The notes below the pieces were generated by a model. The model was not told where the DNA came from and did not search any database. It saw only the letters and a list, made by a program, of their open reading frames with translations. 64,000 nucleotides of DNA from NCBI GenBank assembly GCA_964188305.1, contig OZ076885.1. One strand, given 5' to 3'. The DNA is from Podarcis bocagei. Taxonomy: Eukaryota. Both the position numbers and the translations under genes were made by a program. Of this stretch, positions 41,501 through 50,500 are shown in pieces; position 1 is the first letter of the stretch, and each line of letters starts with the position of its first letter.

Positions 41501-44500
41501 AGTAACGTCGCCGGAAATATATGCCTAGTTCTCTCAAGCAGCAGATAAGATGGTTATGCCCAAACTTGACTCTGGACTGTACCACTTCCAACTACCCATT
41601 CCGACAGGTACGACTGCATGCTTCTCAGGACAAGCCGTTCCCTTCCCATATCAAACTTGATGTTGTGATAGGAATTTTATGGTTTTAGATATATAGTAAT
41701 ATTCATAACTGCACATACATAGATCAGTACAGGAAGGCCAACGTGGAACCATTTTGATTCCTAAACTGACCAAATCCTTTCTCTGCAAGGTTAAAAATGG
41801 AAAAGCCTCCCCATTGTCTCTTCCTTTAATCTGTGTTTGAATAAGGTGTGAGCCTGTGACCTGGCCCAGGAAATAAGTATTTTAGCATTACAAAAGAATG
41901 GCCAGGCTCCCCAGAAAATCCAATCAAGGAACCTGCTAGACAGGAGATAAACAAGGAGAAGAGAAAAACAACATTTAAATTTCTGTGATGTAGGTGGGAT
42001 GTATCTGAGGGGTGGTCTTGGGTTACACCCCTTCTGTGATGTATGCATAATGTTTCTGGGGGTGGTCCTGATCTAGAGAAGGGGAATTTCAAAAGTCTTT
42101 ATAAGGCCTTGCAGGCCATTGTTCTGGGTCCTCTTCCTCTCCTGCGTGTGAGGGGAGTACCCTGTTGCAACAGATCAATAAAGATCAAGCTTACTAGCTG
42201 CTTTGCTTCTCAATATTCTCTGGTTGGCCTCTGTTATTTTCTCCTACCAATAGGGAACCTATGTAAGGACTCTATATGGGCTCTTGGATACCCCATAAGG
42301 GAAAAGGGCATATTTTTATTTACAACAGATGGCGACCACGCACGAAGGGACTTTTGGTTACCCGGATTCTGGAAACGAGGAAGGACTGGTTATCCAGCGC
42401 GCACCAGGCAGTTTGCCAGGAGGAATAACCAGTCTTCCATCGGTCCCAGGGTCTGGCAATAACTTGGAGTTCAGCGGGGCTAACCAGAGGAAGCAAATCT
42501 TGATCAGGCCGGCCTTAAACAACCAGTCAAGACATCGTGGGATCACCAGGAACAGCGCATGCGGAAGTGAGTATTAAGTAGGAAACACGGGTAGTGGGTT
42601 GGGGTCTCTAAACCACAGCAACCAAAATTCTTTAATTCTTCCTTTTCCCTTCAAATCTAAAATTTCTACTTTTTTCCTCATCTAAAAATTGCCTTCTTCT
42701 TTCTGTCCCCTCGATCTCAACACCAGCCCTAGCCCTTCGGAGTATGCCCAGGCAAAGGTTGTGTGTGATTTCTTCCACTTAATTCTGTATGCCAACCTAT
42801 TCCTTCGGAGTTTTGCCCAGAAAGGTTGTGCAATTTCTTCTGCACTGAAAACTATAATTCCCAAAACTATAACTCCCAGGTGCAGCCGCACCTCTGCCAT
42901 GGCGATCTTTGTTAGAGATGACCTGTGAGCAGAGAAAGCAAGGGCACCTGATTCCTTTCCTTCTTTGTCATTTCTGAGTCCCAATCTGGCACTGCGCCAT
43001 GCAAGCGTCCAGTAGGGAACTCTCAGGTTAGATTGTAAGAGGCAGGAGGTTGCTGTGGGCTCCCTGGCTGAGTAATGACCAAAGGGGGGGGGGTTGAGAT
43101 CGCTGACCGCACTGTTAGCTTAGTAGCCAGGAAAGGCCAACAGCTGTACCAGCCTAGTAAGTCAGGCCAGACGAACGGCGGTGTGTCACAGTACAAATTC
43201 TCGGAGTTGTCCAAATTGAGTGTACTGTGGGTTATTTATTGTGTTTCCTGAAAAGTGGGGATAAAACCCTGACTGCAGTATAAAAGTAAAAGCTAGCGCT
43301 ATTAAAATTGAAAATGGGTGCACCTCAGTCAAAAGAAAAATAGTCCCCAGACCCCTGGCGTGAAAGAAGCCCAGTTGGTGCTTACTTCCCGCCTGGACTC
43401 TGACAGTCCCCTTCAATTTGTGTTTAAGAAATGTTTTTCCTGTGTTTAAATTGTACTTAGGTAACATCCAGCAGCTGCTTATCTTAAATGTGCCATCTAA
43501 AATAAAAATGCAAGCTTGCTCCAAATTCTAAATCTAAGGAAGCCATGTTGAGCCTTATCAATCTTAAAGCAAGACAAAATGGAGAATGGAGTGTGCAAAT
43601 GTTTGTTATTTGAGAGAGGCTCTAAAAGAGTTTTCCTCCCAAGTGGTAAAATCCTGTATACGTGCTACTTGTGTTCTGAAAGGGGAATTACCCCACCTCC
43701 TTCCTCTAGTTTAAGTGAGGAGGGCGATTTAAGTCTAATGGTAAATGTTTTGTTGTAACTTTTGAGTTTGCAAGTACACCTGTGTTCCAGTCTAAGTTAA
43801 CCTAATGTTTCTGCTGCAAAAGCCTAGTTGAGCCAACTGCTCTCTCAAGCTAAAATGCAGTGTATGTATTTCATTAAGCATATGCCTATGAAAGTATGGT
43901 GTTCCTTCTAAGAAAAATATCTGAGTCCAGTTTTAACTTTGATCTGGTTGGACAGAAGAGTTATTGTAAGGCTCCTGGTATCAGTCTCTATAAGACGTCC
44001 TGGCCTCTTTTCTTAGAAAATGCCCCCCCTTGTTTCATTCTGTCTCTTTCAGGGTTTTTTCCCCTTCTCCTTCTTATTCTGTGCCAGGTAAATTTACTTC
44101 CGAGTAAGCTTCCTTTAAAGGAAACTGCAAAGGGGGGGGGGCATAGATTAGGCTTACTATTCCTCTGCAAGTTCAGGAAAAATTGTTCACTCTTGTATTC
44201 CTTTTAAATCAAATCTATGGATGTTTAAACTTTGCTTTATAAAAGATCCTCTCCCTATCTTAGGAAAAATGTTAACTTCAATCTTCTTTTAAAGATAATT
44301 TCTATAGGAATTTGCACTCTTTAGTCTAAGGAAGTAAACTCTCACTCAAACTAGCTTCAAGATCTGCTAAAAGGGTTGGGTACTTTTATTTTCCTTTTCC
44401 TTAGTACATGATAGGCGCATGGTTTGTGATAGGCGCATGGCTTGTGATCTCTTCCCCAGTTGTGTCTGTGTACATAAGTATGTGTGTGTTTCTGGTAGTA

Positions 44501-47500: not shown

Positions 47501-50500
47501 TGTGTGTAACTGTTTTTATGTTTAATGTCTTATTCCTTACACACCAGTGGAGAATTCTCATGCATTTTATACTTTCCAATAGCTCACACTATTGTGTAGT
47601 CCAATGTTTAGATAACCACAATTCGTTGTGCCACCTGGCACTATGCCAACCTTCCCTACCCATTTTAAAAAAATGTGCTAAAACTTGCTTTACCAAGGAG
47701 AAGCTTCTAAGAAACATGAAGGTGGATATGCTTTGGTTTAGCAGGAATGATCCCTTATAGACTTAAATTGACTTATTTGGACAACTGCCCTTGTTAAGAA
47801 TGGTTTTCTTTTAACAGATTGGTTTGAAGAGTTGAGAACCATGGGGCAAGATAAATTCAAATTGGACTCAGTTCGAATTGGGCAAGTGTATCCAGGCTGC
47901 AATTAGCTTTTGGTCCTTTAAGTGCAAGTGAGCAACTTCCCATTGTGCGAGTGCAAGACCACAGCCTATAATAAAATCCCATAGCTAAAGGCCAAGGCGA
48001 AGACCTCTCCCTCACGAGATGCCCAAAACCTGTGCCAGCTATGGTGAATGCCAGGCGACATGGTTAAATGAAAGCCCTGAGGGGATTCAACAGAAGGGAT
48101 GTGTTGCTGTAGCACTATGTCAGTGTGAGACCACAGAAGAGCTACCTTGACACCTGAGAACACAAAAATGGCGGGGGGGGGGGGGAAGCAAACTGCACTT
48201 TTCAGTCATTAGTGGACCTTACCTTCCTGCTAGGTGTAAAGCATAGAACACTATTGAGTAAATGGTCTCTCCCAAAGTGTTAGAATGCCACAAGTAATTT
48301 AGTAGCAAAACGCAACATGTGTTATTTTTATATGATATATTCATACAAAGACATCCATCTACAACATACAATGTTATTATTTGTGGGGCAAAAATTTTTA
48401 AGAAAAATTCTAGCCCCAAAGGGGGGAAATTGTGATAGGAATTTTATGGTTTTAGATATATAGTAATATTCATAACTGCACATACATAGATCAGTACAGG
48501 AAGGCCAACGTGGAACCATTTTGATTCCTAAACTGACCAAATCCTTTCTCTGCAAGGTTAAAAATGGAAAAGCCTCCCCATTGTCTCTTCCTTTAATCTG
48601 TGTTTGAATAAGGTGTGAGCCTGTGACCTGGCCCAGGAAATAAGTATTTTAGCATTACAAAAGAATGGCCAGGCTCCCCAGAAAATCCAATCAAGGAACC
48701 TGCTAGACAGGAGATAAACAAGGAGAAGAGAAAAACAACATTTAAATTTCTGTGATGTAGGTGGGATGTATCTGAGGGGTGGTCTTGGGTTACACCCCTT
48801 CTGTGATGTATGCATAATGTTTCTGGGGGTGGTCCTGATCTAGAGAAGGGGAATTTCAAAAGTCTTTATAAGGCCTTGCAGGCCATTGTTCTGGGTCCTC
48901 TTCCTCTCCTGCGTGTGAGGGGAGTACCCTGTTGCAACAGATCAATAAAGATCAAGCTTACTAGCTGCTTTGCTTCTCAATATTCTCTGGTTGGCCTCTG
49001 TTATTTTCTCCTACCAATAGGGAACCTATGTAAGGACTCTATATGGGCTCTTGGATACCCCATAAGGGAAAAGGGCATATTTTTATTTACAACAATGTCA
49101 GGCGGAAAAAAGATTTTTAGCCTCGCCTTCTCCTTCAAATTCTTATTTTCTATTTGTAGAAGTGTCAGAAACAAATGACTCTCCGTGAGCGCGCGAGAGA
49201 GTTCAAGGCGTTGTTGCTAATGAGGTGGTTTGCTTTGTTTTTAAGGTTTTTAATAGTATTTTAAAGTAATGTCAACAACTACTCTAAGTACACCTCAGTT
49301 CCCCTCCCAATTTATTATTTAATTTTATTTGTAAGATTGCTTACCCTGTCTTCACCATGAGGTTCCAGGTTAATCTTTAACAGCCTCTGAAAACTGCCAT
49401 TAACCCGCCCATTCTAAAATCTGACACAATGCTCCTTTTTGAGAGACCAAAATTCCGGCCTTAGGCTGCAATCTTACACACATTCCCCGGGGAAGAAGCC
49501 TCGTTGAATTTAATGGGGTTTACTTTCGAGTAGGGATGTGCAGGAGGAGTGCACCGTTATTCCCTTTTTTCTTGACAGCAATTCCCTTTTTCCCCACTTC
49601 TCTCCAAAGCAAGATTCCTGGAACCACAGTTTAAATCACTTTCATGTTTTAGGCACTTCTGCTTAACTGGGATGTAGAAGTCGTGGGACGATATTGTAGA
49701 AAAAAAGCTAAGCATTAAATCTGCGAAGGCTTACTTGGGAATCAGCCTCACTGAATGCAGTGTGGTTTGGTTTTGAACAACAGGAACACATAAGATCAGG
49801 GTGAACGTCATGTTGATGGGGGCTTTGGGGGTCACCTAGTCTAATGCCAGCTCAAAACAGGAACCTAGAGTTAGAGCACCTCCAACAGATGGCGGAAGCG
49901 CCCAGCTCGAAGACTTCACGAAGGAAAAGCCCCAGTTTTCCCCTCTCCAGTGGCGTAGCGTGGGGGGGTGCAGAGGGGGCCGGCCGCACCGGGCGCAACA
50001 TCTGGGGGTTAGGGTTAGGGGGCGCAAATCCACGGGTTAGGGGGCGCAAATTACTTGCCTTGCCCCGGGTGCTGACAACCCACGCTACGCCACTGCCCCT
50101 CTCCATGACAATTGGCTCCAATGTCGAATTGCTCTTACCTTTAAAAGGTGTCTCCAAATGTATTTTTTTCAATAACCATTTTTAAAAGCTAGGAAGAGCT
50201 AACATGTGTCATTTAGATTAGGTTGCGATGAAGGAGGATGTTAAACGTTTCAAAATATCTGTTAGAACTTTTTATTGGGGGGGAGGACACAGATACCAGT
50301 TTTTTCACTAGGTAAAATTGGTGGGGGGGAAATACATCCCAAAAGTTGATATAAATATTCCGTTCTTATCAGGACGTTATTGGGAGAGCACTATGGGTTC
50401 AAATAACAAATCCAGGGTACAAGTACTCTAGGCGTGCACGCCACAGGTGCGATGAATAATTTTGCTAAACTACATGAAAAACCAGCTTACATTATTTTTT

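Follow-up and report, generated by a model that had tools for sequence, protein, structure and literature searches.

Mouse VL30 elements keep broken gag/pol similarity and are packaged by murine leukemia virus. They are non-autonomous long terminal repeat (LTR) elements of class I type, 5-6 kb long (5.5 kb in PMC1331978). The mouse ETn elements, mobilised by MusD, are non-coding, multi-copy, recently active and dependent on proteins supplied in trans, with insertions in introns (PMC2265474, PMC1331978). In the koala, the abundant PhER element measures about 8 kb and has 478-bp direct terminal repeats and a primer-binding site (PBS) with no protein-coding capacity (PMC5696478). The large retrotransposon derivatives (LARDs) of plants are non-autonomous and longer than 4 kb, the term being a size label for part of a continuum that names no lineage or mechanism (PMC13570524). 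Here we describe a 7.43-kb element in a 64,000-nt stretch of the wall lizard Podarcis bocagei (contig OZ076885.1, assembly GCA_964188305.1; hereafter the window), which is probably a very young copy of a high-copy, non-autonomous and non-coding class I (gamma-like) endogenous retrovirus (ERV) mobilised in trans. The coordinates of all features are summarized in Table 1.

Aligning the two LTRs gave 0 mismatches and 0 gaps across 664 bp, and the exact repeat measures 665 nt, as the base preceding each LTR matches too. ATGT stands on both sides of the element as a 4-bp target-site duplication (TSD), a polypurine tract (PPT) precedes the 3' LTR, and a spacer of 2 nt separates the 5' LTR from the PBS, whose first base is 42330. 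Identical 664-bp repeats, TSD, PBS and PPT in the correct order are far beyond chance. An initial annotation, made from the letters of the window alone, had listed these features together with a splice-donor motif in the leader. The LTRs, the TSD and the PPT are as described there, the donor (GT at 42567) holds at the level of a motif, and the PBS is present but carries a 4-nt duplication that had not been mentioned. The PBS agrees with an 18-nt motif present in HERV9, but the duplication splits this motif after 11 nt; the motif was left between Trp and Arg in PMC4724089 and is assigned to tRNA-Arg via GtRNAdb in PMC11905727.

Just past the PBS, the leader folds into a long hairpin that none of 200 shuffles equalled in stability; its bounds were set after viewing the fold, and the entire 273-nt leader has a z of only -1.0. 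This hairpin is a candidate packaging/dimerisation signal. Rfam returned 0 matches with E up to 1. The aligned contigs and reads have 58 joints, and none of the 15 that are shown corresponds to splicing from the donor at 42567. An acceptor-like sequence at 47803-47900 (+), followed by an ATG in strong context that opens just 21 codons, and ten further acceptor-like sites of the interior were not seen used either. We also observed an 82-codon ATG frame (42329-42577, +) that begins in the spacer before the PBS and stops just beyond the splice donor; it had no match in Pfam or PDB and is probably due to chance.

A 4-bp TSD is typical of class I ERVs, and the element combines one with a PBS of a type used by class I groups. 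There is no coding sequence to fix its lineage, and some Gypsy elements likewise have TG...CA ends and 4-bp TSDs, so that one could read the element as a true LARD, a non-autonomous Gypsy/Ty3-type derivative and not a retroviral one. We consider this very improbable, as the PBS motif is of HERV9/W type, and the leader donor and hairpin, the 664-bp LTR with its AATAAA and the A3G6 PPT resemble class I ERVs.

We then searched for coding sequence in the interior (42328-48429). The longest ATG-started open reading frame (ORF) has 103 aa and the longest stop-to-stop frame 145 aa; the ceiling of about 125 aa proposed initially was roughly right. Pfam gave 0 families in all 6 X-read frames of the whole interior and no retroviral match in 15/15 sub-frames (with two unrelated matches, E about 0.1). 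PDB gave 0 matches for the 3 sense frames, a gag-like 140-aa frame had 0 matches among 1.84 billion protein representatives, and word searches with two interior frames gave 0 retroviral matches. The comparison with retroviral proteins by tblastn, a check suggested by the initial annotation, reached a best E of 0.012 with 76 ORFs from 24 gamma/delta retrovirus records, no better than 10 shuffles (0.014-0.1), and a best E of 0.065 with 11 additional retroviral ORFs. The earlier description of an AT-rich interior (38.9% G+C) without gag, pol or env motifs is thus borne out. In a sensitivity control with added divergence, pol was visible at 20-30% and gag to about 20%, while env was gone by about 10%, which makes a pol remnant unlikely.

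Two candidate relics were considered and dropped. The myristoylation motif MG-x3-S occurs once in the six interior frames, at a place where a gag start might lie, and could conceivably be a relic of one: together with a matrix-like spacing downstream, this idea received no support from the Pfam, protein-library, word and tblastn searches. An env relic near 47500-48000 was not supported by Pfam sub-frames, PDB or tblastn.

The element belongs to a large, high-copy family of Podarcis wall lizards. Its sequence is present in 20 of the 24 runs listed (8 organism labels, 10 studies), and at least half of the sampled words are present in 7 of the 24. Four runs were aligned to positions 42328-51000 and used for depth, joints and strand bins. 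In run X1, single-copy flank contigs have a depth of 82-112, while summed depths lie between 24,000 and 153,000 in every one of the 21 interior bins and reach 1.17 million in the mid-LTR bin, roughly 14-fold the median of the interior; these sums are inflated and do not represent copy numbers. Such an excess of the LTR bin would be expected with many solo LTRs. A firmer value is given by a 147-nt X1 contig, which is identical to 43656-43802 and stands at about 44 times single-copy depth. Run X10 has the same depth shape, its unique flank being without coverage.

Deletion variants of the family are also found. The deepest interior deletion joints among those shown are small (73-234 nt) and include 43626>43861 (about 11x single-copy depth in X1, and present in X10), 43724>43798 (about 20x in X1) and 47196>47294 (about 29x in X1). 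Among the larger variants, one lacks 880 nt (about 2x) and another, in which the end of the LTR is joined to 45486, lacks about 3.1 kb (about 3x). The suggestion that near-genome length was retained under a packaging constraint is not supported, given this multi-kb variant and the existence of short defective retroviruses (3.8-6.3 kb records), although the small size of the most amplified deletions weakly favors it.

With 0 differences over 664 positions, the 95% upper bound on LTR divergence is 0.45%, which places the insertion at under about 2.8 My using a squamate rate of 0.0008 substitutions/site/My (PMC11303007), in line with the recent integration proposed initially. Alternatively, the insertion would not be recent at all if the element were an old, decayed provirus with LTRs made identical by gene conversion or by assembly polishing. 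The old look of the interior and the damaged PBS suit such a history. We nevertheless judge it very improbable in view of the perfect TSD and the full-length LTR identity. At 48510 and 48696, both window LTRs carry letters found at under 10% of X1 depth, and this sharing of minority letters argues against a collapse to the family consensus; assembly collapse had been named initially as a way in which the identity could be spurious. The identity of a 147-nt interior stretch to the deep X1 contig also argues against homogenisation. Finally, X1 has a 522-nt single-copy contig from the right flank. Its alignment begins at 49104, and the 33 letters at its start match nothing in the stretch, LTR end included. 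This suggests an empty insertion site in X1 but, with nine flank letters unaligned, falls short of proof. Over about 1,727 letters of flank, X1 and the window differ at 9 (about 0.5%).

The non-coding interior is much older than the present insertion, because its internal tandem duplications are 5.7-5.8% diverged, against 0 LTR differences, and its CpG dinucleotides are strongly depleted. The observed/expected CpG ratio is 0.07 in the LTR (2 CpG only), 0.18 in the interior and 0.49 in the leader; in host DNA it is 0.62 in the flanks and 0.33 farther off, and in 26 of 27 retrovirus records it is 0.42-0.64. The exception, at 0.19, is L052, a viral-contig record with broken frames and a reverse transcriptase 54% identical to the query, which looks endogenous. 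Of the initial proposal that coding decay preceded insertion, the greater age of the non-coding state is supported; the decay of genes as such is not, since no remnant of them is detectable. For the same reason, a large share of the interior may consist of replaced, non-viral sequence. Its G+C content is 46-48% over the first 1.2 kb and falls to 28% mid-interior, where the sequence is T-rich (up to 46%) and contains microsatellites. Each copy of the first tandem duplication holds a piece of about 38 nt from a very common host repeat, which hundreds of reads and contigs match before continuing into other sequence. We take these pieces to be a CR1-like 3' end. CR1 ends consist of a hairpin and an octamer repeat (PMC4316615, which does not give the motif itself). 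Folding gave a mean z of -0.12 over 53 interior windows against 0.0 over 45 flank windows, with 5/53 and 4/45 windows at z -2 or lower, respectively; since these scores resemble those of the flank, the interior has no global RNA structure.

The PPT 10-mer CAAAGGGGGG has 6 matches in the window, including the true PPT, and none of them lies outside the element. Shuffled sequences contained 0.33 on average (0/100 reached 6), and a Markov model gave an expectation of 0.65 with a maximum of 5 in 300. Each of 27 retrovirus records has at most one such tract (7/27 gamma/delta records carry one), and a literature search on multiple PPTs in non-autonomous ERVs did not find the phrase. The extra tracts could be additional plus-strand priming sites, or recombination scars from older elements. 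Not every tract is required, because one amplified X1 variant is missing the 47267 tract and interrupts the 47288 tract.

If the tracts are scars, the interior could stem from a RecKoRV-like recombination: an ERV with recent activity would have contributed the LTRs and leader, while the body would come from one or several older elements that are now dead and whose remaining 3' ends are the extra PPTs. This variant, which still involves mobilisation in trans, is possible though we hold it doubtful. It would account for the six PPT 10-mers and has a precedent in RecKoRV and PhER (PMC5696478). The 5' part is less shared: in X10, mean depth is 288 over the first four bins of the interior, and the median over the remaining bins is 975. 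On the other hand, a search for a hidden older LTR inside the interior found no second LTR-like sequence (best E 0.23), and the LTR is as CpG-depleted as the interior, which speaks against an exogenous LTR that had only just arrived. If the tracts are instead selected cis signals, together with the hairpins, the family could be a long-lived retroviral satellite-RNA lineage that still inserts today and whose non-viral, host-aged 6-kb body has stayed close to full length during the Podarcis radiation. The five extra PPTs could then serve, for example, as plus-strand priming sites with which a reverse transcriptase borrowed from elsewhere completes a long template. We regard this as unlikely; if true, it would be a sign of a class I retrovirus that is still active in wall lizards and has yet to be described.

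Relatives of the element seem to give rise to sense RNA. No RNA run was among the listed runs carrying the sequence, which counts neither for nor against this. In the bulk RNA run X23 (organism label G, about 12% of it read, strand convention assumed), 100 sense and 9 antisense reads fell in 20 interior bins after leaving out the host-repeat bin, with sense exceeding antisense in 18 of the 20 and 0 reads in 5 unique flank bins. These reads derive from related copies and not from the window copy. No pile-ups of read starts or ends were seen in RNA, and start, end and splice sites are not resolved in the reads.

Returning to a young class I copy mobilised in trans, its features are those of a non-autonomous LTR retroelement: LTRs with a TSD, PBS and PPT, no reverse transcriptase or integrase capacity, and family amplification as seen in interior bins, the co-linearity of whole copies being unseen. 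Its life cycle could be as follows. The LTR would drive a near full-length sense RNA, consistent with the interior sense RNA of relatives in one run, and the structured leader past the PBS might allow the Gag of another, coding-competent retroelement to package it. This putative helper may be an infectious, currently active retrovirus or an endogenous one. Its reverse transcriptase would use host tRNA-Arg at the PBS, and the PPT, for priming, yielding identical LTRs, and its integrase would insert the element with a 4-bp duplication, in this case within intron 1 of mnx2 and antisense to the gene. The interior would be old, host-aged cargo (duplications, microsatellites, captured repeat pieces), already non-coding in the master copy and amplified alongside the cis signals. 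The existence and identity of the helper, the packaging and the functions of the hairpin and extra PPTs are what we infer.

Several observations weigh against this reading. The PBS of the present copy is imperfect. The homology tests used no close class I reptile ERV as reference, and old gag and env relics could escape detection, as the sensitivity control barely detects env. No listed contig spans the whole 7.4-kb arrangement, and its recurrence as a single piece is not evident from the contigs. The RNA signal is low and comes from about 12% of one run with another organism label; 83% of the aligned X23 reads continue into unlike sequence, and the single-cell run X21 has no strand bias. Scans for a helper sharing the LTR ends and PBS covered viral contigs and metagenomes only and gave chance matches only. 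The PBS pattern had 2 matches in viral contigs, one of them a tRNA-Asp gene end and the other without tRNA call, and is uninformative as a helper trace. The LTR-PBS junction had 23 loci in metagenomes, none aligning past the junction (19-22 nt; one weak 43-nt match).

The element marks retroviral-type copying machinery active very recently in a model reptile genus. A published description of the family was not found in titles and abstract openings, Repbase, Dfam and subscription journals being outside this scope, and it may already be an unnamed repeat-library entry. ERV surveys based on homology miss elements of this size that have no genes, and reptile ERV activity is possibly undercounted as a result. 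Young copies can also serve as presence/absence markers for wall-lizard populations.

The host gene is mnx2/MNR2 (MNX1-like), whose exon-1 protein by itself points to the genus Podarcis, with fish mnx2 among its next matches. The element lies antisense within the 20.8-kb intron 1, 2.1 kb from the exon-1 donor, and an effect on the gene is not evident in our data; antisense intronic copies are usually less disruptive (PMC2265474). CFAP65 exons are located beyond mnx2, many of them at 99-24768 (-) as mapped by tblastn. The locus is the MNR2-CCDC108 neighbourhood of chicken Rose-comb, a trait caused by MNR2 mis-expression (PMC3386170). A database protein, P0013, joins mnx2 and CFAP65 and is probably a gene-model error.

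Other features were noted in the window. A very high-copy short repeat, MITE-like by appearance, occupies 49948-50096 and 18500-18910 (X1 summed depth 3.2 million), with related copies near 18508-18907. Palindromic, MITE-like repeats of about 136 nt with 56-63-nt arms are found at 37954-38089 and 25382-25527, one within mnx2 intron 1. A CpG-rich part of the same intron contains a 192-aa stop-free frame (35968-36546, -) with no Pfam match, next to AT-rich, enhancer-like sequence near 36580-36800. A CFAP65 intron contains a 419-aa frame (11067-12326, +) resembling a LINE ORF2 C-terminus, with a weak zf-RVT match (E 0.99); a 90-nt internal repeat is found at 10791/11418. Frames of 227 and 203 aa (23132-23815 and 21692-22303, both +) have no significant Pfam match, the former presumably resembling a LINE RT end.

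Table 1. Features of the element and of its host gene in the window
Feature	Position	Strand	Remarks
Whole element	41664-49094	+	7.43 kb
Target-site duplication, left	41660-41663	+	ATGT
5' LTR	41664-42327	+	664 bp, TG...CA ends
TATA-like motif in 5' LTR	42099		
AATAAA in 5' LTR	42177		
Primer-binding site, tRNA-Arg type (HERV9/W-like)	42330-42351	+	11 nt + 4-nt duplication + 7 nt
Long leader hairpin, just past PBS	42348-42472	+	-58.7 kcal/mol, z -5.4
Splice-donor motif GAA/GTGAGT	42564-42572	+	GT at 42567; motif only
Five internal copies of PPT 10-mer CAAAGGGGGG	43080, 44128, 47267, 47288, 47480 (span 43080-47489)	+	all sense strand
MG-x3-S start	43314-43343	+	stopped after 9 codons; only one in six interior frames
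Internal tandem duplication	44475-44870	+	copies 5.8% diverged
Pieces (~38 nt) of very common host repeat	about 44529-44566 and 44697-44734	+	one per copy of the 44475-44870 duplication
Internal tandem duplication	45135-45520	+	copies 5.7% diverged
Internal tandem duplication, very T-rich	46590-46915	+	copies 5.8% diverged
Hairpin and 3' polypurine tract	48384-48429	+	hairpin 48384-48418, PPT 48418-48429
3' LTR	48431-49094	+	664 bp, same letters as 5' LTR
Target-site duplication, right	49095-49098	+	ATGT
mnx2/MNR2 (MNX1-like) exon 1	51218-51655	-	146/146 residues as in Podarcis muralis protein P0001
mnx2/MNR2 exon 2	30293-30454	-	
mnx2/MNR2 exon 3	29216-29533	-	

Compared by structure alone, the element has the size (7.4 kb against about 8 kb), LTRs, PBS and lack of coding capacity of PhER. 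PhER retains a weak resemblance to env, and most of what is known of it concerns its recombination with KoRV (PMC5696478), whereas the element has no env match at a low env sensitivity, identical LTRs and six PPT copies. ETn is of class II (betaretroviral) and has a known helper with nearly identical LTRs, while the signals of the element are of class I type. Unlike in VL30, similarity to gammaretroviral gag/pol was not detected by tblastn. The element shares its PBS motif with the HERV9/HERV-W group (PMC4724089, PMC11905727); this group carries gag-pol-env, and the sequence link found is limited to the PBS. The initial comparison with LARDs and VL30 is supported as regards a non-autonomous, multi-copy LTR element of a lizard with enzymes supplied in trans; PhER and ETn are closer than VL30, and the LARD label, whose length limit the element exceeds at 7.43 kb, is one of size in plants. 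By analogy, the element looks most like koala PhER and would work like ETn/MusD, its signals pointing to class I, and appears to be a member of neither.

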